The notes under the pieces: model-generated
Databases searched by the model: none
What the model saw: the letters and a program-made list of their open reading frames with translations, nothing else
Told to the model about the DNA's origin: nothing
In this document: positions 2,350 to 37,814 of the stretch, one piece after another
How the letters are laid out: each line of letters begins with the position of its first letter
How positions within the stretch are numbered: the stretch's first letter is position 1
Assembly (NCBI GenBank): GCA_018060845.1
Contig: JAGOVG010000003.1
Span: 21,759 to 85,758 of the forward strand
Source of the DNA: Candidatus Woesebacteria bacterium
Lineage (GTDB): Bacteria > Patescibacteriota > Microgenomatia > UBA1400 > UBA12108
Length of the DNA stretch: 64,000 nucleotides
Direction: 5' to 3'
Position numbers and translations under genes: made by a program

Positions 2350-2407
2350 GCTATGTACTCTGCCTAACCATAATATTTAAAGCAGGGGCAAAGGCAACAA
2401 GGCAGTT

Positions 2408-3355: not shown

Positions 3356-3367
3356 GAGATCTCTCCC

Positions 3368-4231: not shown

Positions 4232-4249
4232 AGAGGGTAAAATGAATCT

Positions 4250-6462: not shown

Positions 6463-6577
6463 AGCTCTATCATAGCGTGCTCTGAGAGATGGATGCCAAA
6501 TATTAATTGCTTTAGATTATAAATTTTTGTCCATACGTTAAGAAACTGTGGCGAATACTATTATCCAGCGAGTTCAA

Positions 6578-6599
6578 CCTGGTTTGGTCTCAAACCAGG
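6578..6599. other. Perfect hairpin in the gap between the two comEC ORFs
   Basis: CCTGGTTTG gtct CAAACCAGG: 9-bp stem with 4-nt loop. No adjacent U-tract. Confidence 0.4.
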
Positions 6600-6649
6600 A
6601 GTTCTACGAGCTATCGCATGAGCAAACAGTTTTAGTCGGACATCAAAAT

Positions 6650-19633: not shown

Positions 19634-20362
19634 ATGCCCAAGTTATACGCAGTGTTTCTGCTTTCAACTTTCTACTTGCTACTTTCTACTCCACTCGCCT
19701 CTCGCGCACTCGCTGAGACCATGAATAGCAACAACTACACAATCCGGACCGGCAACTTTAATATTACTAGTGGTCTCAAGAGTAGTGGTAGCTATAGTTT
19801 GACCGACACCGTTGGTCAAACAGTCGCCAACTATTTTTCTGGCACTGGCTACCACGTCAAAGCAGGTTTTCAATACCTCTACACTCTCTACAACTTTAGC
19901 TTTAGCATCTCTGATCTCGCAGTTAATCTAACTCTCACCCCCAACTTCTTTAGTACCGATACTCATAACTTGGTAGTGACCGCACCAGGTCAGGGCTATA
20001 GCGTAAGCGTTTACGAGACCGAAAAACTAACCCTGAGTGGTGGTCTAGATACCATCCCAGATACTACCTGCGACTCTGGCTCCTGCACAGAGACTAGTGC
20101 CGAGCCCTGGACTAACGCCAACAATAATGGTTTTGGCTACAACTTAACAGGCAACGACATAAGTTCCGACTTTATAAACAGTTCATACTTTCGCCCCTTC
20201 CCCGATTTTTCCCTAGGCGAAAATCCCGCAACCATCATGTCTACAGTCGAAGCCGGGAAAAACAGAACAGCTACCGTCACCTACCAGCTCAGTCCTAGTG
20301 GCTCTCAAGCCTCAGGCACTTACTTCACCAACATTATTTATATAGCCACTCCAACCTACTAA
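19634..20362 (+). CDS. Secreted Thr/Ser-rich surface protein (cassette C, gene 1)
   Basis: Signal peptide MPKLYAVFLLSTFYLLLSTPLASRALA. Contains TCDSGSCTETSAEPWTNANNNGFGY. Ends YIATPTY. Confidence 0.55.
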   Translation: MPKLYAVFLLSTFYLLLSTPLASRALAETMNSNNYTIRTGNFNITSGLKSSGSYSLTDTVGQTVANYFSGTGYHVKAGFQYLYTLYNFSFSISDLAVNLTLTPNFFSTDTHNLVVTAPGQGYSVSVYETEKLTLSGGLDTIPDTTCDSGSCTETSAEPWTNANNNGFGYNLTGNDISSDFINSSYFRPFPDFSLGENPATIMSTVEAGKNRTATVTYQLSPSGSQASGTYFTNIIYIATPTY

Positions 20363-20364
20363 CT

Positions 20365-21279
20365 ATGAAAAACATATTCATCTTCCTTTTACCTTTGACC
20401 TTTCTCCTTTTACCTCCACAAGCTAGTGCCGCCGCTGGCATGAGTGTAACTCCACCAGTCACCGAAATTCTAATATCGCCTAATAAGTCAGTTAGTACCA
20501 CCATTCAACTAACCAACGACGGTGAGGACACTAGTATCATCCTCTCGCTTCATCGCCTCATCCCCCAGGGAGACCAGGGACACTCCACCATCGACCCTAA
20601 ACCCCTCGACCCGACTTCTATCCCCGTAGTAATAAAGTTAGTAGGCAAGGAATTGGGTATTCCATTCAAATTATCTGCGGGTCAAACCCAGGCTATCACC
20701 ATCGAGCTCGAAGCGGCCAATCTAGATGAGCCGACAGATGTTTATTTTGCGATTCTCGCCCGCGGCGTAAATGAGGGGGCTAGCCCCACAGAGAGCCAGG
20801 CCACGCCCGGCATCACTGCGCTCTTCATGGCCACCATCACTCCCTCTGCATCCCTGCCCACAAACATTGCCTTAACCCCGCCTGAGTTACCGATTATTCA
20901 AGATACGAGCATACCTCTGTCATTTGATGTCAAAGCCGAAAACAAGACTGGCATAATGTTGCAGGTCCAAGGCAAGATCAAATTACTGTCACCCAATAAG
21001 GCATTAATTTCCGAATCAAGTATTGATCCCAAACTAATCCTAGGCAATACCTCACGCCTACTTTCTGATTTCGAATTTCTACCTTCTAATTTCGCTTTTG
21101 GTCCTCACACACTGACGATCGAGCTCTCAACAGTTGGCGGCCGCACCTTAACCGAGCACTCGTATGTGATCTGGATGCTCCCTCTTAGGTACCTACTGGT
21201 TGCTACTGTAGCCCTAGTCATTATTTCTATCCCATTACTCCGCAAGTTTCACTTGACAAGGGTATCCATAAGAGCCTAA
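20365..21279 (+). CDS. Secreted surface protein with C-terminal TM anchor (cassette C, gene 2)
   Basis: Starts 3 nt after the upstream stop. Signal peptide. C-terminal TM LLVATVALVIISIPLL followed by RKFHLTR. Confidence 0.5.
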   Translation: MKNIFIFLLPLTFLLLPPQASAAAGMSVTPPVTEILISPNKSVSTTIQLTNDGEDTSIILSLHRLIPQGDQGHSTIDPKPLDPTSIPVVIKLVGKELGIPFKLSAGQTQAITIELEAANLDEPTDVYFAILARGVNEGASPTESQATPGITALFMATITPSASLPTNIALTPPELPIIQDTSIPLSFDVKAENKTGIMLQVQGKIKLLSPNKALISESSIDPKLILGNTSRLLSDFEFLPSNFAFGPHTLTIELSTVGGRTLTEHSYVIWMLPLRYLLVATVALVIISIPLLRKFHLTRVSIRA

Positions 21280-21293
21280 AGTGATACATATAT

Positions 21294-22711
21294 ATGTCCA
21301 AATTGCTTGTAGGCTATTCTGCCCTTGTCCTCACTACTCTGGTAACACTTATTAACCCGAGCTCGCTCAATAGCGCCAACCTAACGACCGTCAGAGATAC
21401 TCTCCAGACATCAAGACTCTCAGTTAATGCGCGGGTGGACGCTACAGGTACAACTGTTGGCAGTAGTAACGTCAAACTCAAAACTGTCGCTAGTGCCCCA
21501 GCCAACACCATTAGTACCGGCAACCTGAGAGCCCAAGATAGCTTGGTAATAGGGACTGGAACCTACACCGTAGTCGATATCGTTGACGCAGACGAATTTA
21601 CCGTCACCCCAGTCCTGGCTAGCGGCGATGCCGACGACAACGATCCTATTTATTTAAAAATACGTCCTCGCCACGCCATCCAGTTTACGACAGCTAGCGC
21701 TGTCGCTAATGGCTATTTCCAGGTCCTTCTCCCTGCCGATCCAACTACCCCAAACGACGGCAACCCAGATGACCAGGGTTATGACTTTAATACTACTGTC
21801 AATGTGACAGCTCCCGCAGACGTCGGCTCTACTTTTGATTTTGTAACAGGTGTCGCAACGGCAGCTGGTGCCACAGGTTGTACTAGCCCAGCCAACTATC
21901 ACTGTTTTGAGTTTCACTACAGTGGCGCTGGCGGAGTCGGCCAAGCTTTTACCCTTTATATCGGTAACACCAATGGTAGTAACACTCCAATAGCCCCTGC
22001 GACCGGCACTGCGCACACCGAAGGTACCGCCGACACCTACCCTGTCTTGGTTCGCCAATTTGCCGCAGATACCAACCCCAATTCAGCCACACCAATCGAT
22101 GCAACAAGCGCTCGGGTCGCCCACATCGAAGCAGTACGAGTAACAGCCACAGTCGAACCAACTATCAGTTTTAGTATCGCAGGCATCGCATCAGGCGCTA
22201 CCCGCTGCGGTATTAGTACTGATGTTACAACCACAGCCACCAGCGTCCCCTTTGGCAGCATGACTCTAAACAGTTTCAAAACACTAGCCCAAGATTTGAC
22301 TGTTAGCACTAACGCTAGCGGAGGCTATGTCGTAACTAGCAGTGAAAACGACCAACTAGGTCTCGGTGGTGGCACCACTCCCTTTATCCCAGATACCACT
22401 TGTGATGGCGGCACATGTAGTGAGAGTACGGCAGTAGAGTGGGCAACAGCCACCAATAATGGTTTTGGTTATAGCCTGGAGAATGTAGATGCAGTAACCA
22501 TCGCGTTTGAGTACGACACTAGTGGCGACACATTCCGTAGCAAGCAGTTTGCCGATATTACAGGCAGCGAAACACCTCAGACTATCTTTAGTAGTAGTAC
22601 AGTCGCCAACGCCGAGAATGCTTATGTCTGTTACCGCTTAAGTGTAGGTGCTACTCAAGCAGCCGGCGACTACGAGAACCAGATTACTTACACTGCCACC
22701 GGAACCTTCTA

Positions 22712-22712
<1 letters not shown>
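21294..22712 (+). CDS. Secreted Thr/Ser-rich surface protein (cassette D, gene 1)
   Basis: Contains TCDGGTCSESTAVEWATATNNGFGY, a paralog of the 19634 protein. Ends YTATGTF. Confidence 0.55.
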
Positions 22713-23677
<965 letters not shown>

Positions 23678-23695
23678 CTGAGATATACTGGTTTC

Positions 23696-24955
23696 ATGCC
23701 CAAGTTTTTTATTGTTCTAATTCTTACTACTTTCAACTTTCTAATCTCTACTATTTCAGTCCACGCTGCAACAGATCCTATATCGGCCACAGTTAGTGCA
23801 ACCGCCAGGATCCCTAGCGCTAGTCCAACTACAGACGATACCGCAGCTCCCCCTGCCGTTATTTTGATTTCCCCTCACGATGGCGCGACCACCAACCAGT
23901 CACGCCCCGAACTAGTATGGAAGACGACCTTTGATAGTAATAGTAACAACGTAAGTTATATCGTCTACCTCAATGGTGTAGCTACCTATCTAGGTGTTAG
24001 TAATACCGGCAACTCACAGCAAAATAACTACATCTCCCATATCGGAGATGGCAACATTTATCTGACACCGACCATTGATCTACCTGCCGGTACCTACGAT
24101 TGGTATGTGAGAGCCATAGATGGCAGCGACAACTCTAGTTTCTCTACCACCTGGCGCTTTACCATTGATCAGACACCGCCGCAACTCACAGTGGTCAATA
24201 TTGATGATGTCTATCTCTCCCCATCCATTACAGAGGGTACTAGCTTTGATTTACCAGGACCACAAGAGGTCAAGATCATCTTTGCGACCGAGAGCTACGC
24301 TACAGTCTCAGTAACCATAACACTCAGTGATGGGACTTTAAGGTCTGTCAGCTTGCCTACCAGTAGTTCTGGTCTCGCCACACTCCTAACCTCGCTCCCG
24401 TTAGGAAGACATGAGATAGTCGCAACTAGTTTTGACTCTGCAGGCCTAACCACTACCCTACCCACCTTCTACCTCAATCTCACTACCACCACCATACCTG
24501 GTATTACAGGGTCGCCCATCCTGCCTATACTCAAAAATATCGTCAATCTACCCGCAAAACTGATAGTATTACCCGCTACCATCTCCCAGATCAAAGATGC
24601 TCAAGTGTTCGCATATGGTTATTCTATATTGCTAGCATTAGCAATAGCCATACTGCTAATCATAATCTGGAGCAGGAGATATAACATCACGATCCTTGAT
24701 ACTTCAACCAACAAGCCCTATCGATCACTTATCGTATACCATAGTAGACCTACTCACTCCGCGAGGCTAGGTGACTTAGCTAGTCGCATCTTTGTAACCT
24801 CTCGCTCACCTATCCTCTACGAGCTAGGGAGCAGTGGCAGGGCCTACATTAGTCATCTGTCGCGCTACAGTAGCTTAACTATCCGCACACCTAGTGGTAC
24901 TACCCACATCCTCTCGATCTCATATAATCTGAACAAGTATGTAATCTGTCTCTAG
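23696..24955 (+). CDS. Secreted Ig/FN3-like surface protein with C-terminal TM anchor
   Basis: Signal peptide MPKFFIVLILTTFNFLISTISVHA, paralogous to the cassette signal peptides. Beta-rich repeats. TM ILLALAIAILLIIIW near the C-terminus. Confidence 0.45.
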   Translation: MPKFFIVLILTTFNFLISTISVHAATDPISATVSATARIPSASPTTDDTAAPPAVILISPHDGATTNQSRPELVWKTTFDSNSNNVSYIVYLNGVATYLGVSNTGNSQQNNYISHIGDGNIYLTPTIDLPAGTYDWYVRAIDGSDNSSFSTTWRFTIDQTPPQLTVVNIDDVYLSPSITEGTSFDLPGPQEVKIIFATESYATVSVTITLSDGTLRSVSLPTSSSGLATLLTSLPLGRHEIVATSFDSAGLTTTLPTFYLNLTTTTIPGITGSPILPILKNIVNLPAKLIVLPATISQIKDAQVFAYGYSILLALAIAILLIIIWSRRYNITILDTSTNKPYRSLIVYHSRPTHSARLGDLASRIFVTSRSPILYELGSSGRAYISHLSRYSSLTIRTPSGTTHILSISYNLNKYVICL

Positions 24956-25094: not shown

Positions 25095-25243
25095 AGGCGA
25101 GATCACTATTTTCACATTACCGTAATCAGTGTAAACATTACCGCAGATACATTGCGGTTAATATACTCCGACTTGAGTATTGACAGCACCCATCATGTAT
25201 TACTATAGTGGGTGTATATCGATATAACTACGTATAACTCCAG

Positions 25244-28200
25244 ATGAAAAACACTGTCCAATTACCCTCTACTCACACAGCTCTCTTAACCGCCTTCAGG
25301 ACCTACTTGGCTAGTCTCGGCTTAAGCAGTATTAGCCGCAAGCTCTACTCTGCAGATATAGCTCGATTACTCGCCTCAAGTCTCTTTAGTGATCTCAATG
25401 TCGCTACCCTGACCAACCCCAAGAACTATGCATCCTACCTCTCCCAGCCCGAGCTAACTAGCTCTAGCACCCTACTCCGCCGCACACTCGCATCACTTCG
25501 CCAATTTGGCACCTTCCTCAATCAGAGTTTTGACCTCCCAAGCCCCATCACCAACCTCTCTCTAGCCTCCAACACCCTCTCAAACACCATTAGCAACAGT
25601 TCGAGCAAGTATATCAAAGCATGCATGGAGTATCTCAAAGACAATCATCTAACAGATTCGAGTATTAGGTCCTATAAATCAGACATCACCCAGTACCTCA
25701 CCTACCTAGAGTCTCACCACCCTAGCACTCAGATAGGGAGTCTGCTAACTGATAAAAATCTACAAAATTACACGGATCTACTCACTCATTTGGATACCCA
25801 ATCCCCTGCTACCATAGAGCGCAAAATCAAAACTATCAGACGATTTTTGAACTGGTACAGCAGTACCAAGTTGCAGGTAGTAGTATCCGATAACACAAAA
25901 ATCCCCGCATCCAGTTCACATATCTCCCCTCTGTCCTCTTCCGTCCAGGTCAATGGTGTTAACTCCGCACAGGCAGAGCTCTACTCAGATCAACCTCAAA
26001 CTCAACTACCAGATCACAAGTACAATAATGTGAAAACTAGCAATTACCGCAAACTACGTCTACCCACTCTAAGAATGATCCTAAGCGGCGTAATCCTCTT
26101 AGTCTTAGTCTCCACACTCTCAATATTCTCTTATCGACAGTTTGGCCGTGACGCTAGTCTAACTGCCGCCTTCCCCTCTACTCCAGTAACCCCCAATAGG
26201 CAGTTGAGTTTTCAGGGTCGCTTAGAGAATGCGAGCGGCACCCCAATCACTGCCGCGACCAACTTTGTCTTTAAGCTCCACGATGCCAGTAGCGGTGGCT
26301 CAGAACTATATAGTAGTGGTACCTGTAGTATCACCCCCGACACCGATGGCGTCTTCTCAACACAAATCGGCGGGACCTGTGGCGCCGGGATCGCGAGCTC
26401 TGTCTTTACCGAGAACGCAGATGTCTGGCTCGAAGTCACAGTCGGTGCCGAGACTCTAACCCCTCGCCAGCAGATTGCAACCGTCGCCTACGCCCTTAAC
26501 TCTGAGACCATCCAGGGCTTCCCGATCAGCGCCACAGTTAGTGCGATCAGAAACACAGTTGTCCCCATGAACCAGTGGGGCGAGATCATCGTTGGTGAAC
26601 AGTCCCCTCGTCTAACCGGAGTCTCAGGTACTTTTCAAATCTCGGCCCCCTCCCTCTCCTTAGTTACTGCAACTGGCACCAACGGCAACATCACATTAGC
26701 CCCCGACGGCACTGGTCAGGTTAATGTCAATGGCAACACCACTACCACCAACTTCTTTAATGTCAGTAACGCTCAGCTTACAACCGGATCCTTGATTACA
26801 GGTACTGCCGCCAACAACAATACAGGGTTCAACTTACTTGATCTATTATCAGGTGCCTCACCTACCAGCAAATTCTCGGTATCTGATTCAGGAGATACCA
26901 CAATTGCAGGCACACTCTCATTACCCAACTCAAATAATATGACTGGTGTCGCCAATGGCGTTCAATTTAATGAGGGTATTTTTGTCGGAGGTGGCACAAC
27001 TTACTATTTTGACGTTGGGGGTGAGCTAAATGCAGCAGGTGGGGCCTTCTCTAATGGCTTAAGCATCATTAACGATTCTGCTCTATCTGCTTTTGGCCAA
27101 GTAAACTTAGGTGATGGAGGTGAGACTATTCATCTAAACGGAACTAGCATTACACTCACTGGCTTTGACTGTACCGGCAACACCAACGGTGGCGCCCTGA
27201 CCACCAATGGTTCTGGGGTTCTACAGTGTAGTGATGACGACGGAGGTGGTGGTGGCAGCGGTGGTCTCTGGCAAGACACTACACTAGGCGCCATCTCCCC
27301 AAACAACTCTACCTGGGACGTCTTGGTAGGTGGCACAGCTACTAGTAGTGCCAAAATCGGTTTGATCAATATAAATAGCGGCACCCCTACCATCAATCTA
27401 GCTAACCAAGCCAGTAATCTAGCAGTAATTGACAATACCAGTAACGCCCTACGTATCCTCGAAGGAGCCAACAACTATCTCGCACTCACCACAACTAACG
27501 CGAGTGAAAACTTGTCATTTGGCAATACAACCACCAATCCTACATTCTCATTCCTAGGCACAGGTCTCACTACTCTTAGTGGTGGATTGACGGTTAACGG
27601 CATTACAACTATCGGCAACAACTCAGCGACTGTCGCTATCAATAGTAGCGACTGGGATATCACGACAGTCGGTAATATGTCTGGAATTGGAACCATTAGT
27701 AGCGATGGTGACTGGACCAACAGTCAGGCAACGCCATCTATATTTTTGACTGATTCTACAGCTAGTTCAGACGACTATAGCGTCAATGTCGACGCTAACG
27801 TATTTAATATAACCAATGCAACAGACTCTAGAATAGAGCTAGATTTCGCAGGTAACGGTAGTATCAACTTTGGCGACAACACTGCCACCAAGACTATCGA
27901 CATCGGTGGTGTCACAAGCTCAGCCATCGACACTATTAATATAGGTACCAACGCAACTGCCGCAGATATTATCTCTATCGGCAACAACCATGCATCAACT
28001 ACTCTTGCTCTCACAGGCGGTACAGCCTGGAGCATCACAACAGCAGGCAATCTAACTACCAACAATACAACAGTTAACGGTAATACAATCCTCGGCAACG
28101 CCATTACCGACACAATCGACTTCCAGGGTCGGGTACTACAAGATGCAGACCTCATCCCTATCACTACTACTGGGACCAATGACTTGGGTAGTTCTGCCCT

Positions 28201-31200
28201 CGCCTGGGACAACCTCTACACTAACGCTGCCTACTTTGCAGGCGGCACCAGCTTCTATGTCGATGCCTCGGGTAACGCTAGATTTAACGATATTATCGCT
28301 GCCGACACCGCTAACCCAGGTATCACCGTCGGCGATGGATCAACTGGCTTCCTCAAAGTTGGGTCACTGACAGTAGGAGACAATAATGCAAGTGTCGTGA
28401 CCTTTGATACTAACAGCGACGCAACTCCCGAATTTCAGCTCTACAACACCGGTTCCGCCACTGCCTCGGGCGACATTACAATGGGGGGACAGTTGCAGGT
28501 CGGTAGATTTGAAAACACTCCAACAGCCATCGGTGCCGGCACCATGATCTTTAATACGACTACCAACAGTTTCCAATGCTACAACGGTACCGCCTGGACT
28601 AGCTGTGGTGGGACGCTCTTTAGTAACTCTAACGCAAGTGTGGCCGATGGCAGCTATATTACAGTCACTCACAACTTGGCCAGTAACGACCTCCTCTCCA
28701 ATGCCTGGATCAACGCACAAGGGGTCTGGAAGAGTCTCGATGCCAGCTATAAACCCGCGATCGCTTGGGAGGGCAAGGATACTCAAAAAGGGATCTATCA
28801 CAACGCTCTAAACAGCTATATCCCCTCCTCAGAGACAGGCACCGGAACCAACACTCTCCATGAGGGGATGATCTTTGACACATTTGAGGACACAACCAAG
28901 ACCGATAGTGCCAACACCACGGTCAGCACCAACCAACAAATAGGCGATGATGGTAGTAGTAACTTTGTCACCCTCGACCAGCGCATCCAAGGCGGGCGGG
29001 TCGGGCTAGTTGGTGGTCAAACTTTGAGTACTGGTGAAACAGACAATGATGGCCAAGCATACTTAGGTAGCAACACAGTTAATGATATGTATTATTACGA
29101 TAGAGCAAAAGATAGCGTACCAGAAGTTTTAGTAGAACTTGGCATTGATCCAAACTGGTATAACGGAGTTACTCTTTCAGTTGCAACAGGTAGTGCAAGT
29201 TATTCTCAATCAGGAACACTTGCAGACAAGAATCCAAACCTAACAACTACATATAACGGTAGTTTAATCAAAGCAACAGGAACTGATTCAACACCGAGAA
29301 CAATCTTTATAACAATCAAATCCCCTACTACATTTGATTGGACAAACTATGAGGGTGACTCTGCAACAGCAGTCACAATTACTCCAGGAACTGCACAGGC
29401 ACTAGGTAGTACAGGCGTATCAGCTACTTTTACAGCTACAAACTACAACGTCGGTGATGTATTTAAAATTGCCTCTTGGTATATAGAAGCAGAATCTGCA
29501 ACAAGAGGAGCAAAACAACAGTTTCCAGAAAGAAGTTATGTTGTAGCTTCAGGTACAGCAGGAGCAGGTTTTATTGATGTGATCGACGCCGACACGCAAA
29601 AATTATGGATTAAGTTCACAGAAGGTACTGGGTACTACCTTCGCTCTACAGCAAATCGCGTCCCCCACACTGTTGACATGCTAAACGGCAAATTATACTT
29701 TGGTCAAAAGGATTCTAACAATGGGATCCTAGAAAGGATCAACTTTGATACAGATTCACTACACTTATGGACCCCGTCTGCTAAATACACCTACGACCAA
29801 GGAATATCACAAAGGAATACAGCCAGTAATATATTAACAATCAACACAACTGAAACAACTGTTGCAAACGACGTCAACGATGTTTCTGCAGCCGTCATCC
29901 CAAATCAACCGTCACAACAGATGACTCTGACAGGCTGGCGAGTTCACCCCGGCAATGGAACTGCAACCCTAACTTCTGGTGTTGACTTCCAGTATCCGTT
30001 TACCGACACACCTCAAATTCAAGTAAGTATTGTTGGTAGAACCACCTCAACTACAACGCCAAAAAGTCTAAAGGACTGTTCGACTAATGTCGATTCTGCA
30101 ACCATCTCAGCATACAACAACAATCCAGCTAACTTTTATGCAAGATTTTCCAACACAACCTTCTCTGCTTCTTACAATTATTGCTTTGTTTGGAGTGCGA
30201 CAGGCACAGTTGCACCAAAACAAATCGTGGCGGTTGCGACAGGCACAACTGGGGCAGATGGAGGAACGACTATTATCAACGAAACTGACGGTAAAAAGGC
30301 CGACATTTTAATTGGCTCACAAAACGCTTCAGTATTATGGCAAAACAAGGTTGCATTGGCTCAAGATGGCACGTTGTATGTCGTATTAAACAACCAATCG
30401 ACAGCAACAACCCTTAATGTCTATGCTGGAGCGTCGGGCATACCTGAAGTAATTTCTCAAGAACCAACCTGGGCAGCTTATCGCAATGGATTCTATTACC
30501 TTGATTTGCAAACACAAGGATGGTCAGCAACTGGTCCGGTCATTAAAGGAGTAGGTACAAACTCAGATGAAGTTAAGTCTCTATCTGTAACTAGTGGAAC
30601 CAGTTCAATATCTCCCGGAGCAAATACTATTTATGTTGGCACCTCTACAGGTGTAACCGTACTTAATGAAGCCAACATAGAGCCAGATTACAATAGTGAC
30701 GAACCAAGCAACGGCTCAGTCAAATACTACACCAAAGACTACGTTTCTGAAGAAATGATTGGCGATGTAAGAGGAATGTGGGGTATGTATGATACTGATA
30801 CAGACATTGACACGGCTGAAACAACAGATGATGTCTCGATTAAAAATCTTAACCTAACAGCTAACAACGCAAACAGTACTGGGTTTACCTCAACCTCAGG
30901 AGTTCGTGGTGAAGGTATAACTTTTGATGGTACCGACGACTACTTTAGTCGCGCAGATGACGCATCACTTAGTTTTTCTAACAACACCATGTCGGCAAGT
31001 TATTGGGTAAAACGTAATGGAAATCCATCTTCTGCTGAATATATCATGCTCAAAGGAATTACCACCTGGGAATATGCTTCTGCTATTACTACTGCAGGTA
31101 AAATTATCAGCTGGTTATTTACTTCAGCTGGAGCTACTGTCGCAACTGTTACTTCTAATTTATCTGTCACTGACAATGAGTGGCATCATGTAGCTATAAC

Positions 31201-34200
31201 CTCAAATGGTTCTACTATTGCTGTGTATATCGACGGGCAATTAGACAATAACTCCACATCATTCACCAGTGCAATGACAAATACTGCATCAAGTTTTTAT
31301 GTCGGAGACAGATCAGACATAGCTAATTCAGAGTTCCAAGGTTCATTAGATGAATTAATGATAACTGGCACTGCTTTATCGAGTAGTCAAGTTAGGAATA
31401 TCTATCAAGTTGGCTATCGTGCATTACAAAGTCATACAAGTTCTGGATTAGGTACAGGTGGTGCAGATACTAACCAACAGCTCGGATACATTTCGACAGG
31501 TACTAGCTCTGTAGGTGTAGTTCAACCGGATTACAACAACCAATATATGTACGTAGGTACAAACTCAACAACACTTGGAGCTCTATCAAAAATACAATTG
31601 AACAGTGATACAAATATTAAAACCTACAACTCCAGTGCAAACGTCCCTACTGGCGGTGTTCTTACTTTAGATGAAGACATAACTTCCCTAGCAGTTGGAG
31701 AAACACTGTATGCAGTTGGTTCTGCAGCAAGTGGTGTTAAAACAATGGGACTGGATAACAATGCAACTGCAACTAGTGGTAACTTTGTCAGTAAAACCTA
31801 TGCGCTACCAAAAAATATTGGCTCTGCAGTTCTTTGGGTCTCACCAATTATGGACAGCAACGACGGAAGTAACACAATCACAGTACAGGCAAGTAACGAT
31901 GGTGGTAGTAACTATGCAACTTGTACTCTAGTAAACACAAATACAAATTATGATGCACCAGAACGTGAGTATGCCTGTACATTTACAGCTGCAGACAACG
32001 ACCTAAAAGTTAGATTTCAAATGGCAAGAGGAAACACAAAAACAAATACCTATGTTGTCCAATATGGAATTAGCTGGTTAGGTGAAACTGGTTTTAGAGT
32101 CGAACAAGCTGATAACAACAATGTAAGGTTATATAACTTCTCAGGTGAAGCTCAAAACTTAAAGTTAAACATAACTGGTGCATCAACTTCTGCCCTAGCA
32201 AACCCATGGACAGATGGTGGTAGCTACATTTACGCAACAGGATATGAAACATTAAGAATATATGACGGTGCAGGAACAAATTACTTAGGACTCTCTCATG
32301 ATGGAACATATGCAACATTGGGCTACAATGGTACAGACTTTATCAACCTCACATCAACAGGTGATTTATTACCAGAGACAAATGATACTCAGGCTCTTGG
32401 TTCTGACTCATTTAGATGGGAAGATGTCTTCCTCGGTCCAGGTAGCGTTCACGTTGGAACCTCAACGACTGACGAAGGTGTTATATCTTATGATACATCC
32501 GGTAACATCTTAAATATTGGTACGGATAGTACTAGTAATGGAGATATTGCATTCTTCACCGACGACCTCTATCTAGATAAATCGTCTGGATTTATCGGTC
32601 TCGGCGATATAACTCCAGATTACTTACTTGACGTCGCAGGCACTGCAGGGTTTGACTCAACGCTCACACTTACCGGATCAGCAGCAAATGTCGCACTCGG
32701 ATCAAACTACCTATCAGGCGATGGTGGTGATGAAGGAGTCTATGTTGACTCCAGTGGTAACGTCGGCATTGGGAATGCCTCACCTGACAGACCATTACAA
32801 GTTACGAGATCAACAACAGGCATACCTATGAGATTACAAAACAATTTTACAGATTCATCTGAGTACTGGGTAGTCGGTCCGTCAGACAGTGATAACTTCG
32901 CGATATTTAATGATGCAACAACTGGTATGTATATTGCGTATGGTGCCACCTCTTGGACCGCCAACTCAGACGAACGACTAAAGACTAACATCGAGGCGCT
33001 CACTAGTGTAGAAGGACTGGCATCTCTTCTAGAGTTGACTCCGGTCAACTACAACTGGAAAGACGTTAACACCAATCAGAGCAAGCAAACAGGTTTCTTA
33101 GCTCAAGAAGTCCAGCGTCTCTTCCCAGGACTTGTAAGTTTAGGAGAAACCACAACAATTACGCTTGCTGATGGCTCGACCCAGACGATCGAGGCACCCC
33201 TTGGCGTCAACTACACTGGCTTTATCCCATACATCATCAAAGGGATCCAGGAACAACAAGCACAGATTAGTCAGATGTTCCAAAATCTCATTACACCTCA
33301 AGTTAATACCGCCATGATATCCCCTCTCGCTCCAGGGCAGTCCATCGAGATCACAGCCCCCGTCGTCATCTCACCCACAACTCCCAACCTAGACACGCCA
33401 ACTCTCATCGTTGATGGTGAGATTGAGGCCACGACCATCTCTGCTCGTGTAGCTCAGTTAGAAACCATCCGTGCCGAGACAATTACCGCCAGAGACATAG
33501 TAGCCGACACTATCACTGCCAACTCAATTGTCGGTCTAGATGCCAAAATAGCTAGTCTCTCAGCCGGGATCAGCGAATCAGATTTCGACTCGATCTCCGA
33601 GCGGATCAGATCTAGATTAGCGAGCCTGACTGGTGGCGAGGCAAATGCCCAGGACGTCCCCGCTCCTCCCTCTATTCCTGAGACAGTAATCGAATACTCA
33701 GAGCTATCCACTGCCTCAGCTACGCTAGCTACTGCCGACATAGACTTTGTCACAGTCAATCAGTATCTCGCTGTCATCGGCTCAGCCACCATCACTAGTT
33801 TGGATATAACTAGTGACCTCTATACTAATAGAATAGGTAGCAAGGATAACCTCCTCGCCATCCAGCCACTCGGTGGGATAGTCAACATAGCAGACAGCAC
33901 ATTTGTTGTAGATAGTAGCGGCCAGGTCATGGTCAACGGCGACTTAACAGTCTCCGGACGCATCCTAGCCGAATCAGGCAACCTAGGTTCGCTTGAACTA
34001 GGTTCGCCATTGGACGCTTCAGCTAGTAGCGCGCTAGGCAACCTCCTCTCTATCTACAACGAGCAGGGACAAGCGGTCGCAACTATAGACGCTTCAGGCA
34101 GTGCCAATCTAGCGGGTCTCACCACCCAGCTAGTAACCATCGCATCAGGTGGAACCTCCGCCACTCAGTCAGGACTGATCTCAAGTCAGACGAGTAGCAA

Positions 34201-34453
34201 CTCAACCGCAGGTGTCAGCACCCTCCTCTCACCCGACACTGAGCTAACGATCGATAGTCCCTATGTCACTGCCAACTCCCTAGTCTATTTGACACCTACC
34301 ACAAATACTGACAACAAAGTTCTTTTTGTCAAAGCTAAGGTTAGTTGTCCCGAAGAATCTGAACTATGCACACCATCATTCACAGTCGGGATAGATGCAC
34401 CAGCGTCGACTGACATCGGCTTTAACTGGTGGATAATCGAGCTCAAACAATGA
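25244..34453 (+). CDS. Giant (3069 aa) single-pass membrane surface protein. Two N-terminal phage-integrase SAM-like domains, TM, Gly/Thr/Asn-rich beta-repeat ectodomain with LamG-like domain and S74-type intramolecular chaperone domain.
   Basis: Uninterrupted 9.2-kb ORF. Two N-terminal repeats resemble the XerD N-terminal domain (LTAFRTYLASLGLSSISRKLYSADI and YLKDNHLTDSSIRSYKSDITQYLTYL). TM at about aa 272-298. LamG/ConA-like segment at about 30.88-31.41 kb (WHHVAITSNGSTIAVYIDGQ...LDELMI). SDERLKTNI...VNYNWKD at 32.96-33.25 kb matches the PF13884 tail-fibre chaperone motif. Confidence 0.75.
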   Translation: MKNTVQLPSTHTALLTAFRTYLASLGLSSISRKLYSADIARLLASSLFSDLNVATLTNPKNYASYLSQPELTSSSTLLRRTLASLRQFGTFLNQSFDLPSPITNLSLASNTLSNTISNSSSKYIKACMEYLKDNHLTDSSIRSYKSDITQYLTYLESHHPSTQIGSLLTDKNLQNYTDLLTHLDTQSPATIERKIKTIRRFLNWYSSTKLQVVVSDNTKIPASSSHISPLSSSVQVNGVNSAQAELYSDQPQTQLPDHKYNNVKTSNYRKLRLPTLRMILSGVILLVLVSTLSIFSYRQFGRDASLTAAFPSTPVTPNRQLSFQGRLENASGTPITAATNFVFKLHDASSGGSELYSSGTCSITPDTDGVFSTQIGGTCGAGIASSVFTENADVWLEVTVGAETLTPRQQIATVAYALNSETIQGFPISATVSAIRNTVVPMNQWGEIIVGEQSPRLTGVSGTFQISAPSLSLVTATGTNGNITLAPDGTGQVNVNGNTTTTNFFNVSNAQLTTGSLITGTAANNNTGFNLLDLLSGASPTSKFSVSDSGDTTIAGTLSLPNSNNMTGVANGVQFNEGIFVGGGTTYYFDVGGELNAAGGAFSNGLSIINDSALSAFGQVNLGDGGETIHLNGTSITLTGFDCTGNTNGGALTTNGSGVLQCSDDDGGGGGSGGLWQDTTLGAISPNNSTWDVLVGGTATSSAKIGLININSGTPTINLANQASNLAVIDNTSNALRILEGANNYLALTTTNASENLSFGNTTTNPTFSFLGTGLTTLSGGLTVNGITTIGNNSATVAINSSDWDITTVGNMSGIGTISSDGDWTNSQATPSIFLTDSTASSDDYSVNVDANVFNITNATDSRIELDFAGNGSINFGDNTATKTIDIGGVTSSAIDTINIGTNATAADIISIGNNHASTTLALTGGTAWSITTAGNLTTNNTTVNGNTILGNAITDTIDFQGRVLQDADLIPITTTGTNDLGSSALAWDNLYTNAAYFAGGTSFYVDASGNARFNDIIAADTANPGITVGDGSTGFLKVGSLTVGDNNASVVTFDTNSDATPEFQLYNTGSATASGDITMGGQLQVGRFENTPTAIGAGTMIFNTTTNSFQCYNGTAWTSCGGTLFSNSNASVADGSYITVTHNLASNDLLSNAWINAQGVWKSLDASYKPAIAWEGKDTQKGIYHNALNSYIPSSETGTGTNTLHEGMIFDTFEDTTKTDSANTTVSTNQQIGDDGSSNFVTLDQRIQGGRVGLVGGQTLSTGETDNDGQAYLGSNTVNDMYYYDRAKDSVPEVLVELGIDPNWYNGVTLSVATGSASYSQSGTLADKNPNLTTTYNGSLIKATGTDSTPRTIFITIKSPTTFDWTNYEGDSATAVTITPGTAQALGSTGVSATFTATNYNVGDVFKIASWYIEAESATRGAKQQFPERSYVVASGTAGAGFIDVIDADTQKLWIKFTEGTGYYLRSTANRVPHTVDMLNGKLYFGQKDSNNGILERINFDTDSLHLWTPSAKYTYDQGISQRNTASNILTINTTETTVANDVNDVSAAVIPNQPSQQMTLTGWRVHPGNGTATLTSGVDFQYPFTDTPQIQVSIVGRTTSTTTPKSLKDCSTNVDSATISAYNNNPANFYARFSNTTFSASYNYCFVWSATGTVAPKQIVAVATGTTGADGGTTIINETDGKKADILIGSQNASVLWQNKVALAQDGTLYVVLNNQSTATTLNVYAGASGIPEVISQEPTWAAYRNGFYYLDLQTQGWSATGPVIKGVGTNSDEVKSLSVTSGTSSISPGANTIYVGTSTGVTVLNEANIEPDYNSDEPSNGSVKYYTKDYVSEEMIGDVRGMWGMYDTDTDIDTAETTDDVSIKNLNLTANNANSTGFTSTSGVRGEGITFDGTDDYFSRADDASLSFSNNTMSASYWVKRNGNPSSAEYIMLKGITTWEYASAITTAGKIISWLFTSAGATVATVTSNLSVTDNEWHHVAITSNGSTIAVYIDGQLDNNSTSFTSAMTNTASSFYVGDRSDIANSEFQGSLDELMITGTALSSSQVRNIYQVGYRALQSHTSSGLGTGGADTNQQLGYISTGTSSVGVVQPDYNNQYMYVGTNSTTLGALSKIQLNSDTNIKTYNSSANVPTGGVLTLDEDITSLAVGETLYAVGSAASGVKTMGLDNNATATSGNFVSKTYALPKNIGSAVLWVSPIMDSNDGSNTITVQASNDGGSNYATCTLVNTNTNYDAPEREYACTFTAADNDLKVRFQMARGNTKTNTYVVQYGISWLGETGFRVEQADNNNVRLYNFSGEAQNLKLNITGASTSALANPWTDGGSYIYATGYETLRIYDGAGTNYLGLSHDGTYATLGYNGTDFINLTSTGDLLPETNDTQALGSDSFRWEDVFLGPGSVHVGTSTTDEGVISYDTSGNILNIGTDSTSNGDIAFFTDDLYLDKSSGFIGLGDITPDYLLDVAGTAGFDSTLTLTGSAANVALGSNYLSGDGGDEGVYVDSSGNVGIGNASPDRPLQVTRSTTGIPMRLQNNFTDSSEYWVVGPSDSDNFAIFNDATTGMYIAYGATSWTANSDERLKTNIEALTSVEGLASLLELTPVNYNWKDVNTNQSKQTGFLAQEVQRLFPGLVSLGETTTITLADGSTQTIEAPLGVNYTGFIPYIIKGIQEQQAQISQMFQNLITPQVNTAMISPLAPGQSIEITAPVVISPTTPNLDTPTLIVDGEIEATTISARVAQLETIRAETITARDIVADTITANSIVGLDAKIASLSAGISESDFDSISERIRSRLASLTGGEANAQDVPAPPSIPETVIEYSELSTASATLATADIDFVTVNQYLAVIGSATITSLDITSDLYTNRIGSKDNLLAIQPLGGIVNIADSTFVVDSSGQVMVNGDLTVSGRILAESGNLGSLELGSPLDASASSALGNLLSIYNEQGQAVATIDASGSANLAGLTTQLVTIASGGTSATQSGLISSQTSSNSTAGVSTLLSPDTELTIDSPYVTANSLVYLTPTTNTDNKVLFVKAKVSCPEESELCTPSFTVGIDAPASTDIGFNWWIIELKQ

Positions 34454-35151
34454 GACAATCAATGTGGTTTAATAGATCTATGCTCAACTCTAGACGACGT
34501 GGTTTTACATTAATCGAATTACTAGTAGTTTTGGCTATCCTAGCTATCTTAATGATAATTGCTTTGAGTATGGTTCAGACCAATAGAGACAAAGCAGTAG
34601 ATAGCAAAATTAAAGCCGATCTTCAAAGGTTAAAGATTGTCTTCGAAGATTACCATGCTGACAACGGCTGCTACCCGCCACCCAGTTTTTTCGACGATCC
34701 TAGTGATTGTGGCGCTAGCCACCTCGCTCCATACTTAAGCACGATTCCCTGCAATCAAAAAGGCGGTAATCCCTACACTCTCGAACGTGACCCCACAGGG
34801 TGTGAGTGGTTCAAGATTTATGCTGATCTATCACTCTCAACCGATCCTCAAGCCCTAGAACTCTGTTCACCCTCTGGATCCAGTCTTGGCAACTATGCAA
34901 CCAGCTCAGACAACGTAGTCCCGAGTGTCCTGTGTGATGCTCAACCTAGCTCATCTGCGCCGAGCTCTGCTCCGGGTGTGTCACCATTACCACAAGGTCA
35001 CAACTACTATTACTGCAGTGCACAGGGCAACTGCACCAGTTTTAACGAAGAATCTCACGTCTGTACACCCTATTTTGTAGATAATCCTAACTGCAATGGA
35101 ACCATCAGTCCTTGCACTACTCAGTTTGTTGGATCTTGCACCTCGCTATAA
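34450..35151 (+). CDS. Type IV pilin-like protein (prepilin N-terminal cleavage/methylation domain) with Cys-rich C-terminal domain
   Basis: GFTLIELLVVLAILAILMIIAL carries G-1/F+1 and Glu+5. The leader is about 18 aa. The ATG overlaps the giant gene's TGA as ATGA. The C-terminal domain has 14 Cys. Alternative start ATG 34480. Confidence 0.75.
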   Translation: MRQSMWFNRSMLNSRRRGFTLIELLVVLAILAILMIIALSMVQTNRDKAVDSKIKADLQRLKIVFEDYHADNGCYPPPSFFDDPSDCGASHLAPYLSTIPCNQKGGNPYTLERDPTGCEWFKIYADLSLSTDPQALELCSPSGSSLGNYATSSDNVVPSVLCDAQPSSSAPSSAPGVSPLPQGHNYYYCSAQGNCTSFNEESHVCTPYFVDNPNCNGTISPCTTQFVGSCTSL

Positions 35152-35169: not shown

Positions 35170-37053
35170 ATGATATATATGACTACAAAATCTATATTAC
35201 TGGTCACACTAATCACACTGTGCTCGCTCTTCTTTTGGACAATCACCCCTAACTATTTTGCGACCCCAAAAGAGGTTGTCTACTCACTAGTTATATTAGT
35301 AATTGGCATTATCACAATACACTCCCTACTAGTCAAAAAAACTCTCCGTCTCCCAAGCATCTATACTATTGCCCCACTCATTTTGTTCATAGTATCAGTT
35401 ACTTTATCTCTCATTTTCAACCCAGAGGGGAGGCCAGAAGCACTAGGCAGCAAAGCTAGCATTCTCCTATCTCTACCAATTATCGCTCTATACTTTAATT
35501 ACCACGCAACTAGCGCTCTCTCCAAGATCCTAATCAACAGCCTCGTCTGGGTCGGCTCACTCCTCTCTCTCCACAGCCTACTTTCACTAATTACACTGTC
35601 CAAACTAATCTGGTTACCACAGTACATGCAATCACAGGCTTTCACGCCGACTGGCTCATACCTCACTACCCTCTTCCTCATCGCAGTTAGTCTATCGATC
35701 TCAATCTACCAGCTCAAAAAGAATACTCAAGGCGTCTATTACAAGGTTGCACTCCTCATCATCCACATTGTCGCAATCGTTGCAATCGTGGCACAGATGC
35801 TACCTGGCAACCCACTCTCACCACAACTCTTACCTTACGGTTCGAGCTGGAGCATCGCGCTAGATGCCCTCAAATCGATCAGATCACTATTTTTTGGGAT
35901 TGGTATTTCCAACTATAGTCTCCTCTATACCAGTGTCAGACCTCTCGCAATTAATGCAAGCGAACTATTTAATCTACTACCTCAGAGTGCGACCAGCGAA
36001 TTTCTCACCATTCTGCCGACCGCAGGCCTACTCACCTCAATATCACTGATTTATTTGATGCTAAAAACGGTCTATCAATCTCGTGCAACATTGCTTTTTG
36101 CACCTACAATACTCACAGTTATTACTTTCTTCCTTATCCCCTCCTCCCTGATCCAGTATCTCTTACTCTTTACTATTTATGGACTCGTCTCAAGAGAGCC
36201 GAGCACAGATCACGTTTCGCTCAAACACAAAAGTAATATTATAATTTCTATTCTAGTATTATTTTTAACAGGAGCTTATCTCTACCCAACAGTTTCCAAC
36301 TACGTAAGTGAATATTTCATTAATCGCGCGCGCGTTGCAACCATAGCAGGTGAGAGTCAAAAAGCCTACGAATCTCATCTTAGAGCACTCTCTATCTCGC
36401 CACGTATCAGCAACTACTACATTAGTTTTGCCGATATCAACTTTAGGCTAGCTCTCGCACTCTCGCAAAAACCAAATCTAAGCGAAGAAGAGCGCCAAAA
36501 CGTATCGAGGTTAATCCAACAGAGTATCGAATCATGCAAAAATGCCATCGCGCTAAGACCCAATGATAGTCGATCTTGGGTAGCGCTAGCCAAGATTTAT
36601 CAAAATTTAATCACTGTCGCTCAGGGTGCAGATAATTTTGCCCTAGAGGCATACACCAAAGCAGTCTCACTAGACCGTGCTAACCCTGAGCTTAGGGTTG
36701 AGCTGGGCAATCTCTTCTCACAACTAGCTTCGCTTCCCAAGAATGCTTCTAGCTCGAGCGCTTTGAGGGAGCGAGCTCTCAACGAGATCTCAACTTCCCT
36801 CCAGCTCAAGAACGACTTTGCTGCAGCATATTACAGCCTTGCTCGGATTTTTGTCCAAACCAACGAGACCGATAAGGCTCAGGCAGCATATGACCTAGCA
36901 CTCAAATACCTCGATCCAAATAGCCCAGAATATGCTCGAGTTCTTTCCGAAAAGAACCAGCCAGAGATCACAAAGACACCCTCACCAACCCCACTCCCAT
37001 CACCAATTGGTGGTGCAGCACTAAATCTGCCTACAGCAGAATCAAATAACTAA
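35170..37053 (+). CDS. Polytopic membrane protein with C-terminal TPR repeats (O-antigen ligase/Wzy_C-like; candidate pilin glycosyltransferase)
   Basis: At least 10 predicted TM helices in the N-terminal 400 aa. Then TPR-like repeats (AYESHLRALSISP..., ALRPNDSRSWVALAKIYQNL, AAAYYSLARIFVQTNETDKAQAAYDLALKY). It lies directly downstream of the pilin gene. Confidence 0.4.
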   Translation: MIYMTTKSILLVTLITLCSLFFWTITPNYFATPKEVVYSLVILVIGIITIHSLLVKKTLRLPSIYTIAPLILFIVSVTLSLIFNPEGRPEALGSKASILLSLPIIALYFNYHATSALSKILINSLVWVGSLLSLHSLLSLITLSKLIWLPQYMQSQAFTPTGSYLTTLFLIAVSLSISIYQLKKNTQGVYYKVALLIIHIVAIVAIVAQMLPGNPLSPQLLPYGSSWSIALDALKSIRSLFFGIGISNYSLLYTSVRPLAINASELFNLLPQSATSEFLTILPTAGLLTSISLIYLMLKTVYQSRATLLFAPTILTVITFFLIPSSLIQYLLLFTIYGLVSREPSTDHVSLKHKSNIIISILVLFLTGAYLYPTVSNYVSEYFINRARVATIAGESQKAYESHLRALSISPRISNYYISFADINFRLALALSQKPNLSEEERQNVSRLIQQSIESCKNAIALRPNDSRSWVALAKIYQNLITVAQGADNFALEAYTKAVSLDRANPELRVELGNLFSQLASLPKNASSSSALRERALNEISTSLQLKNDFAAAYYSLARIFVQTNETDKAQAAYDLALKYLDPNSPEYARVLSEKNQPEITKTPSPTPLPSPIGGAALNLPTAESNN

Positions 37054-37055
37054 AT

Positions 37056-37814
37056 ATGAAAGCTCGAAATACAAAATCCTGGAAAACACTCATAATCCCC
37101 ACTCTCGTAGTCGTGATTACCTTGCTCTATCTCTTCATCAAACCTAAGCCGATCCAGATCGCCGAAATTACTAATGTCCCAGGCAGCGTATCACTAACTC
37201 TGAGCGCCACATCTCCACAGCTCAAGCTCAACCAGCCCAGTACAGTCACACTCTCATATAGCTCTCCAACCGAAAGATTCACCGCCATCCAGACCGATAT
37301 TATCTTTGATCCGACCTACTTTAATGTCTCATCATTTACCCCCTCTCCCACCATGGAGGCCATCCTCCAGACTGCTACTGTCAAAAATGGCAATACTATT
37401 TCTTTTGCTTACGGGGTCGCACCTGGTAGTCAGGGTTTAATCGGTAGCGGTAGCATCATGAGCTTTACTGTCACACCAAAAAAAACTGGCTCTAGCCCGC
37501 TAACTCTGCAGAATACCTTAGTCGCGACAATAGGTCGTCCCACCAACGCTCTCCAGAGCGTGGCTAATCCCACATTTACCGTGATCAACCCATCCCCCTC
37601 AATATCCCCCACACCGAGCCCCACTCCCTTACCTTCAATTACTCCGACACCTAGTCCAGTGCCCTCTCCTTCACCATCTCCCACCTATAAGGCAGGTGAT
37701 CTCAATAAAGATGGTCAGGTCAACTTTGTCGACTTTAATGTACTCATTACCGACTTTGGGACCAAATATCACATTGTCGACTTTAACAACATCATTACCA
37801 ACTATGGCAAGTAG
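37056..37814 (+). CDS. Cohesin-like domain protein with C-terminal dockerin-like module (adaptor-scaffoldin-like)
   Basis: N-terminal TM or signal. Cohesin-like segment VTLSYSSPTERFTAIQTDIIFDPTYFNVSS...ISFAYGVAPGSQGLIGSGSIMSFTVTPKKTGSSPLTL. PT linker. Then KAGDLNKDGQVNFVDFNVLITDFGTKYHIVDFNNIITNYGK. Confidence 0.5.
   Translation: MKARNTKSWKTLIIPTLVVVITLLYLFIKPKPIQIAEITNVPGSVSLTLSATSPQLKLNQPSTVTLSYSSPTERFTAIQTDIIFDPTYFNVSSFTPSPTMEAILQTATVKNGNTISFAYGVAPGSQGLIGSGSIMSFTVTPKKTGSSPLTLQNTLVATIGRPTNALQSVANPTFTVINPSPSISPTPSPTPLPSITPTPSPVPSPSPSPTYKAGDLNKDGQVNFVDFNVLITDFGTKYHIVDFNNIITNYGK

Follow-up and report, generated by a model that had tools for sequence, protein, structure and literature searches.

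We analyzed a 64,000-nt stretch of DNA from Candidatus Woesebacteria bacterium (contig JAGOVG010000003.1 of assembly GCA_018060845.1, positions 21,759 to 85,758 of the forward strand; hereafter the window, whose own numbering is used throughout), and in particular a giant gene that occupies positions 25244..34453 on the plus strand. The gene is one uninterrupted frame of 3069 amino acids (aa), and its product is 100% identical to NCBI entry MBP9702489.1 ('tail fiber domain-containing protein', Candidatus Woesebacteria). An initial annotation, made from the sequence alone, had read the protein as part of an adhesion or contact apparatus coupled to a pilin. Its view of the gene as intact held, with no frameshift breaking the frame, and its pointer to Saccharibacteria gave way to Woesebacteria (Microgenomatia) as the source, given the identical database protein. 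A promoter-like site, TTGACA-18-TATAGT (25180..25209, plus strand), which is a consensus match only (11/12 positions), ends 35 nt before the ATG, within the 288-nt gap that separates the giant gene from a pam-like pilus operon upstream; a type IV pilin gene follows downstream. From N to C terminus, the protein consists of a SAM-like head, a signal-anchor helix, a membrane-proximal module, a mosaic middle, an S74 domain that is optional in the family, and a C-terminal module of ~400 aa (the C-module). As argued below, this chromosomal gene probably encodes a cell-anchored surface fiber of Woesebacteria (Microgenomatia, candidate phyla radiation, CPR) and belongs to a large, undescribed family.

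A search covering 5.8 billion proteins returned more than 200 relatives, 1700-5000 aa long, from Woese-, Collier-, Shapiro-, Pacebacteria and other Microgenomates, and a scan of GTDB, with one genome per species, placed relatives in at least 396 species genomes. Most relatives have precomputed Phage_int_SAM matches and many are named 'site-specific recombinase XerD'. We compared 86 loci, six from an exact protein look-up (L001-L006) and 80 from GTDB (L007-L086), and the SAM_N profile was found in 86/86. Record titles of the 80 GTDB loci are mostly of Microgenomates-type CPR, apart from a set that is evidently mislabelled or mis-binned, with many reading 'uncultured Pseudomonadales' or 'uncultured Gammaproteobacteria', one 'Spirochaetia' and one 'Bathyarchaeia'. 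Query coverage by 119 homologs identified two conserved ends, aa 1-550 and ~2670-3069, and three landmarks recur family-wide: the transmembrane (TM) helix, the motif RQLSFQG ~40 aa later, and FNWWI(I/V) ~10 aa from the C terminus. Among 120 proteins, SAM-like repeats number two in 80, one in 28 and none in 11; the last group appears N-terminally truncated or split. Longer proteins that share the N-terminal head nearly all also have the TM helix and the membrane-proximal module. Literature searches for such an architecture in CPR found no description.

The cytoplasmic head carries two copies of a SAM-like domain that resembles the core-binding domain of tyrosine recombinases, at aa 10-97 (repeat 1, 25271..25534, plus strand) and aa 118-208 (repeat 2, 25595..25867, plus strand). 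In scans of the full-length protein the SAM-like Pfam matches were sub-threshold (E 0.02-0.07). When the N-terminal 300 aa were scanned alone, PF02899 scored 22.9 bits (cut-off 22.3) and PF13495 reached E 2.7e-5, its 24.9 bits falling under the cut-off of 27; both profiles were matched by 28/28 aligned family members, with a best E of 8.7e-23. The NCBIfam XerD model matched aa 132-210 (E 3.8e-7) over model positions 9-82 only, and the XerD, XerC and XerA models all match aa ~128-211, each over the first ~82 model positions only. Profile-profile alignment with hhalign identified the two repeats as homologous to each other (probability 99.2%, E 1.8e-19), and the family alignment has invariant residues at K33, Y35, D38, Y65 and R80 in repeat 1 and at Y144, S146, D147, Y176 and R193 in repeat 2. 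AlphaFold2 (28 sequences) modeled two four-helix bundles with a predicted local distance difference test (pLDDT) of ~85-97, above 90 for repeat 1; after them come a disordered linker (211-270) and then a TM helix (276-299). The top Foldseek matches in PDB were all tyrosine recombinases (XerA, IntI, Brujita Int, XerD, the lambda Int core-binding domain and Cre), spanning 86-101 columns with a root-mean-square deviation of 2.3-3.5 A and a probability of ~1. Pfam, NCBIfam, hhalign, AlphaFold2 and Foldseek thus agree with the initial annotation that the first ~270 aa hold two SAM-like core-binding domains, and the repeats do model as the four-helix SAM-like fold. The giant head shares this fold and its signature residues with the N-terminal domain of XerC/D, lambda Int and IntI, and has it in two copies. 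It differs from these enzymes in being joined to a TM helix and a giant ectodomain, with no catalytic domain: neither Pfam nor NCBIfam gave a match to a recombinase catalytic domain (Phage_integrase, with its R-K-H-R-H/W-Y site) anywhere in the giant protein.

What comes after repeat 2 is instead a low-complexity, disordered cytoplasmic linker (aa 209-272, 25868..26059, plus strand; pLDDT <50), poorly conserved in the family alignment, and then a TM helix (aa 276-298, 26069..26137, plus strand), which AlphaFold2 also models as a helix. This helix is the sole hydrophobic segment in a hydropathy scan of the protein and is flanked by six K/R residues on its N-terminal side and two on its C-terminal side. 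Most homologs have a TM helix in the corresponding position. Because of this single segment and its charge bias, we assign a signal-anchor in the N-in orientation, with the head in the cytoplasm and ~2770 aa outside, as the initial annotation had it.

In 16/86 loci the giant gene is split, and the break always falls in one place, the loop that joins helices B and C in repeat 2 (L029, L034, L045, L049, L053, L054, L060, L062, L063, L069, L071, L072, L077, L080, L085 and L086; the split site lies at ~9000-9650 in most loci). The products are a soluble protein of ~170 aa and a membrane protein that starts with helices C-D. One such locus is in a complete chromosome (CP066686.1). Recoding at the split site was ruled out, because the stops are TAA or TAG with a restart ATG nearby, within -53 to +18 nt in most loci and in varying frames. 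A search of Rfam for an intron at the recurrent site gave no match. In some of these species genes lie in the gap: a 23S_rRNA_IVP-like gene (L072 and L049), an NYN-domain gene (L034), or a LamG giant gene together with a DUF3800 gene (L063).

Outside the membrane, the protein begins with a conserved module (aa 307-560, 26162..26923, plus strand) that starts PNRQLSFQGRL and was aligned in blastp by ~108-115 of the 119 homologs, with 36 invariant columns and more than 45% identity across the family. Its first ~60 aa resemble the N-terminal domain of the MAT adhesive fibers of Bdellovibrio: the NCBIfam model NF053851 (Bdello_MAT_N) matched the giant protein with E 3.7e-6 and 26.8 bits (cut-off 60), and matched 13/14 family members with a best E of 6.2e-10, all under the same cut-off. 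These matches suggest that the two domains are remotely homologous. A PDB sequence search with the profile of this module returned nothing significant.

The conserved module gives way to a long G/T/N/S-rich region (aa 561-2559, 26924..32920, plus strand), over which the number of aligning homologs falls to 26-64 of 119 at aa 561-800 and to only ~9-26 across ~800-2650. Comparisons with individual relatives show that this region is mosaic. In one homolog (P0013), identity is 85% for aa 1-716 and 59% for the C-module, and the middle is unrelated; another (P0008) shares the middle and the S74 region at 54-70% and has a one-repeat head and a divergent C-module. The composition described in the initial annotation stands; its wording of a beta-repeat ectodomain does not, as the resemblance is compositional only: searches found neither internal repeats in the protein (E<1e-3) nor tandem repeats in the DNA. 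The LamG/ConA-like lectin fold that had been proposed is well supported, at aa 1895-2050 (30926..31393, plus strand), by Laminin_G_3 (PF13385, E 2.2e-23, above threshold), PF02210 (E 2.3e-7) and PDB entry 4qvs (E 3.9e-10). Some homologs (P0084, P0095, P0101, P0039 and others) have Hint/intein-type domains (PF14890, PF07591, PF01079) within the variable ectodomain, and P0084 has an apparent intein-like insertion with an endonuclease-like segment.

Past the distal end of the middle lies a Peptidase_S74 intramolecular chaperone autoprocessing domain (aa 2575-2680, 32966..33283, plus strand). PF13884 matched aa 2575-2631 over profile positions 1-57 of 58 (E 5.4e-14, 52.7 bits, cut-off 22), and the motif SDERLK supplies, at the sequence level, Ser2575 (32966-32968) and Lys2580 (32981-32983). 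A PDB sequence search with this stretch gave only a non-significant match to MyRF (E 1.5), so a fold search was needed. In the AlphaFold2 monomer model of aa 2560-3069 the S74 part has a pLDDT of ~65-89 and ends in a helix (2657-2680). Foldseek returned the MyRF ICA domain 7dc3 as the best PDB structural match (E 2e-5, TM target 0.6) and the K1F endosialidase chaperone 3gw6 with probability 1.0; in BFVD, 95 viral models matched at E<=1e-3, mostly phage S74 proteins. Collectively, the profile, the motif and the fold match identify a genuine S74 domain of the PF13884 type, as had been predicted. From the motif we infer a cut, predicted between Asn2574 and Ser2575.

From Ser2575 to the C terminus there are a further 495 aa. 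The initial annotation had noted this distal sequence correctly and considered its placement unusual; in the family it is the rule, since the motif SDxRxK, present in 17/120 homologs, always lies 390-660 aa from the C terminus and directly before the C-module (17/17 S74-bearing homologs). The S74 domain is thus a cassette that family members may carry or lack, inserted at the border of the conserved C-module (aa 2670-3069, 33251..34450, plus strand). Across aa 2651-3050 the number of aligning homologs rises from 53 to ~109 of 119. The C-module comprises helices (2765-2796), a beta-rich stretch and a terminal beta-sandwich (aa 2979-3069; pLDDT 83-95) that ends FNWWIIE. The distal coiled coil that had been predicted would correspond to helices at 2657-2680 and 2765-2796, as modeled in the monomer only. 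Fold searches of PDB and BFVD with the C-module outside S74 gave no informative match, and hits of the beta-sandwich to CUB and to a pyocin fiber foot were non-significant. An assembly or chaperone element, or a binder of something conserved, fits the C-module better than a receptor-binding tip does, because a conserved end is unusual for a receptor-binding fiber.

The S74 domain, its phage-like matches and the database names 'tail fiber domain-containing protein' and 'site-specific recombinase XerD' would also suit a tail fiber derived from a phage or prophage, or a mis-annotated or decayed site-specific recombinase. Phage tail fibers and tailspikes such as the K1F endosialidase (3GW6) and T5 pb1 are alike in S74 sequence, Ser-Lys motif and predicted fold, and have a mosaic body as well. 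In phage fibers, however, the chaperone is the extreme C terminus and the N terminus docks on the virion, whereas the giant protein continues for ~390 residues beyond the S74 helix, has an N-terminal membrane anchor and is encoded on a cellular chromosome. The phage-like matches are confined to S74, and PHROGs gave one weak match, on that stretch only. The flanks are cellular (the pam-like operon, the pilin, Obg, Rho and LeuRS) with synteny kept across dozens of species, and no phage genes were found within the window. The phage or prophage reading was rejected on the cellular gene context and the single weak PHROGs match. The lack of a catalytic domain refutes the recombinase reading; the XerD models match by their N-terminal ~80 positions only, the TM anchor is present and the frame is intact. 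We regard the likelihood of either origin as close to negligible.

A second set of observations bears on whether the protein might be a membrane-tethered regulator that relays host contact by the ectodomain to a DNA-binding-like head, in the manner of ToxR, or of MYRF with its S74-dependent processing. Stand-alone recombinase core-binding domains can bind DNA, as in ALOG and Ndc10, both SAM-like repeats are basic, and the best PDB structural match of S74 is the MyRF ICA domain. MYRF (myelin regulatory factor) is, to our knowledge, the only well-known protein in which a DNA-binding head is combined with an S74/ICA domain and a TM helix, and like the giant protein it has substantial sequence beyond the ICA domain. 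The order of parts differs: in MYRF it is DNA-binding domain, ICA, TM helix, and cleavage frees the DNA-binding domain, whereas in the giant protein the head (aa 10-208) is followed by the TM helix (276-298), the fiber and S74 (2575-2680), and cleavage would be extracellular. Because S74 and the head lie on opposite sides of the membrane, S74 cannot free the head as in MYRF, and an MYRF-like release was ruled out by domain order. S74 is moreover optional (17/120), a mosaic ectodomain of 2770 aa is atypical of sensors, and the head is a separate polypeptide in 16/86 loci. We consider a regulator of this kind very unlikely.

We next turn to the genes that accompany the giant gene. Immediately upstream lies a five-gene operon (19634..24955, plus strand) that encodes, in order, a 242-aa PamT/pilin-like protein, a 304-aa chaperone-like protein, a 472-aa Pam-pilin-like protein, a 321-aa chaperone-like protein and a 419-aa Big_13 protein (PamR-like). 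The 242-aa and 472-aa proteins are secreted. As read from the translations, a signal peptide and, at the C terminus, a TM helix are present in both chaperone-like proteins, which also gave Ig-like hits, and the PamR-like protein has a C-terminal TM helix in addition to Big_13. Hits of the WxLIP_PGBD/fn3-like type were obtained within the operon as well. The NCBIfam model CPR_Pam_pilin_C matched the 472-aa protein with E 0.0022 and the 242-aa protein with E 0.08, both below the NCBI cut-offs. Of nine orthologs of the 472-aa protein, six also matched this model, the best with E 6.5e-7 and all again below cut-off; the 472-aa protein and its orthologs align the model end to end. Across orthologs of the operon proteins, Pam pilin model matches reached E 6.5e-7 and 1.1e-9, below the curated cut-offs, and one ortholog of the 242-aa protein matched CPR_pilus_PamT over its full length (E 3e-8, below cut-off). 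In Candidatus Mycosynbacter amalyticus the pam operon comprises the pilins PamT/A/B/E, TM-anchored PapD-like chaperones PamC/D and a TM-anchored terminator PamR, and Microgenomatia Pam homologs are only ~21% identical (bioRxiv 10.64898/2026.03.03.709456). Because of the Pam-model matches, and because composition and gene order are as described there, we read the window operon as a divergent, pam-like version of this CPR chaperone-usher-like pilus operon. Pam-like genes, in an operon of five to six genes across loci, lie directly upstream of the giant gene and on the same strand in 66/66 loci for which 6 kb or more of upstream sequence was available.

This linkage raises the possibility that the giant protein is part of the Pam machinery, as a membrane base, platform, terminator or tip adhesin, and is not an independent fiber. 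In its favor, along with the 66/66 synteny, the described Pam system has neither a membrane platform nor an usher dedicated to it, and a protein termed 'tail fibre-like' is consistently found alongside pam operons and is central in their neighborhood network (Troman et al., bioRxiv 10.64898/2026.03.03.709456). However, the giant gene stands behind the 288-nt gap and has a promoter-like site of its own, its product has no match to CPR_Pam_pilin_C, and its terminal beta-sandwich models as a complete, stand-alone domain. The preprint, furthermore, already assigns the tip to PamT and the anchor to PamR. The giant protein is not among the Pam components described. Its gene lies directly 3' of a divergent pam operon in every locus examined, and the preprint contains no analysis of its tail-fiber-like protein. 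On balance, membership of the Pam machinery appears unlikely.

Other genes lie upstream of this operon. At 18964-19614, immediately upstream of it, is an open reading frame with a weak match to a REP-associated tyrosine transposase (E 9e-4). A second surface-protein operon of similar flavor (366-5236), perhaps pam-like or WxL-like, includes a WxLIP_PGBD-like gene (2408-3355), a Big_6 gene (3368-4231) and a cohesin-domain gene (4250-5236). A trio on the minus strand (5584-8294) consists of comEA (SLBB+HHH_3), comEC (Competence) and a Lactamase_B gene; it abuts the pam-like operon in L001 and L004, and in the window ~11 kb (a beta-helix protein, LeuRS and others) separates the two.

Downstream, the TGA of the giant gene (34451-34453) overlaps the ATG of the next gene at 34450 as ATGA. 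This gene encodes a 233-aa type IV pilin or pseudopilin (34450..35151, plus strand) with the prepilin motif G/FTLIELLVV, which reads RRRG followed by FTLIELLVVLAIL. N_methyl (PF07963) matched it above cut-off (E 1.7e-10), TIGR02532 scored 34.9 bits against a cut-off of 16.3, and a GspG-like match had E 1.4e-11. The initial annotation was right about the pilin and the overlap. Translational coupling of the two genes through ATGA is only plausible, because an alternative in-frame ATG at 34480 gives the pilin a more typical 8-residue leader (MLNSRRRG/FTLIEL). As a conserved partner, the pilin did not hold up: it lies downstream in 13/28 loci and is adjacent in 9/28, and the invariant neighbor is the pam-like operon.

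A giant protein working as a type IV pilus-associated adhesin with a translationally coupled pilin, the emphasis of the initial annotation, would account for the ATGA overlap with a bona fide prepilin gene and for the homologous pilins downstream in those 13/28 loci, which in ~6 species lie within 55 nt on the same strand. The pilin is, however, absent or distant in more than half of the loci, sometimes on the opposite strand and sometimes behind a second giant gene, which often lies between the two; a prepilin motif is missing from the giant protein, whose anchor is a TM helix of its own; and no type IV pilus motor or platform genes were found within the window. This partnership strikes us as very doubtful. 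Downstream content varies across loci and includes a second LamG giant gene, type IV pilins, a TPR membrane protein and Obg. In many relatives this second giant gene comes directly after the first, in some cases with stop and start overlapping, at the place where the window has the pilin (L001 19421-25300, L003 19963-26541, L004 18117-26867 and L006 18427-24546). It encodes a protein of 2000-2900 aa that has a TM anchor at its N terminus and domains of the LamG, DUF2341 or Gly_rich_2 type.

By analogy with characterized fibers, the giant protein would most likely be a trimeric fiber that binds a host or another surface. The closest characterized system is the MAT family of Bdellovibrio bacteriovorus, predator surface fibers with a conserved beta-rich domain following the signal peptide, shafts formed by a trimeric beta-helix, ends of the S74 or non-S74 kind and tips that bind glycans (Caulton et al. 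2024, PMC10769870). Each family appears to place a conserved, beta-rich domain close to the cell, right behind the export signal and apparently of remote common origin, followed by a long fiber with exchangeable adhesive parts; both include S74 and non-S74 subfamilies with an SDxxxK motif; and each comes from a bacterium living on other bacteria. They differ in that MATs, ~1000 aa in length, have a signal peptide that is cleaved and terminate in S74 or a variable tip, whereas the giant family has an uncleaved TM anchor after ~270 cytoplasmic residues with a recombinase core-binding head, is 1400-5000 aa long and has a conserved end module of ~400 aa, after S74 when present; the similarity is also below the NCBI cut-off. 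New elements are a tandem core-binding head on the cytoplasmic side, a TM anchor that is kept, a conserved C-module following S74 and the obligate linkage to pam. The surface fiber or adhesin proposed by the initial annotation survives as the best reading, helped by the MAT_N similarity in 13/14 members; the pilin partnership that went with it does not.

According to this fiber model, the signal-anchor would insert the protein in the membrane and ~2770 aa would be exported. The ectodomain would fold and trimerize from its C-terminal end, as in phage tail fibers and MAT fibers, and in this member S74 would check trimer formation and then cut between Asn2574 and Ser2575, freeing a C-terminal piece of 495 aa and exposing the mature tip. 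Exchangeable central cassettes might then bind glycans or other ligands on the surface of a host or partner cell, and the fiber would cooperate with the Pam pilus encoded just upstream as one attachment locus. The tandem domains of the head would most plausibly bind nucleic acid or act as an intracellular docking or oligomerization platform; this role is the least supported step of the explanation.

Several points weigh against the fiber model or parts of it. All mechanistic steps beyond the presence of the domains draw on analogy with MAT and phage fibers. The NF053851 similarity is confined to ~60 residues, at positions 14-75 of the 162 in the profile, and scores far short of the NCBI cut-off. 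With S74 in only ~14% of homologs, C-module release cannot be a general feature, and the C-terminal end is conserved rather than variable, the opposite of usual receptor-binding fibers. Foldseek E-values for the SAM-like domains are weak (0.04-2), and the positive charge of the head is no proof of DNA binding. Finally, the preprint's 'tail fibre-like protein' (bioRxiv 10.64898/2026.03.03.709456), which its supplement does not identify, is only possibly a member of the giant family.

Each SAM-like repeat has a median net charge of +6 across the family, and one may ask whether the head contacts DNA on the cytoplasmic face of the membrane and so physically links an extracellular host-contact structure, tied genetically to the Pam pilus, to the chromosome or to incoming DNA. 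We consider this specific link distinctly unlikely. If true, the protein would be a transmembrane device of a new kind, CPR-specific, running from contact to nucleoid or from contact to DNA uptake, and the recurrent fission of the head into a soluble piece would permit regulated assembly of the fiber-DNA link.

Microgenomatia are a very large and wholly uncultivated part of CPR, and the giant family accounts for some of the largest genes in their ~1-Mb genomes, in hundreds of species. Its mosaic middle is as expected of host-range determinants, and the gene is fixed beside the recently recognized Pam operon. Because of this size, spread, mosaic middle and pam linkage, we propose the family as a prime candidate for a host- or surface-recognition fiber and as a marker of host specificity. 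A recombinase-derived cytoplasmic head on an extracellular fiber is without described counterpart and puts the core-binding domain to a new use. The names 'site-specific recombinase XerD' and 'site-specific integrase', given to hundreds of database entries, are wrong.

Beyond the pilin, the window encodes a polytopic membrane protein with C-terminal TPR repeats (35170..37053, plus strand), identified by TPR hits. It stands right after the pilin gene, and such a protein lies downstream of the giant gene in 14/28 loci, where the pairing recurs. The pilin has an S/P-rich stretch, and a role of the TPR protein in pilin modification or pilus biogenesis is conceivable. Two secreted proteins that are otherwise different (17572-18954 and 37056-37814) end in near-identical, dockerin-like tails of ~40 aa, PGDLNLDGTVNLIDFNLLITNFGNPYTILDFNSIISNFGK and AGDLNKDGQVNFVDFNVLITDFGTKYHIVDFNNIITNYGK. 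Three cohesin-domain proteins, among them those at 37853-39247 and 4250-5236, are encoded near the dockerin-tailed ones, which hints at a surface assembly of the cohesin-dockerin type.

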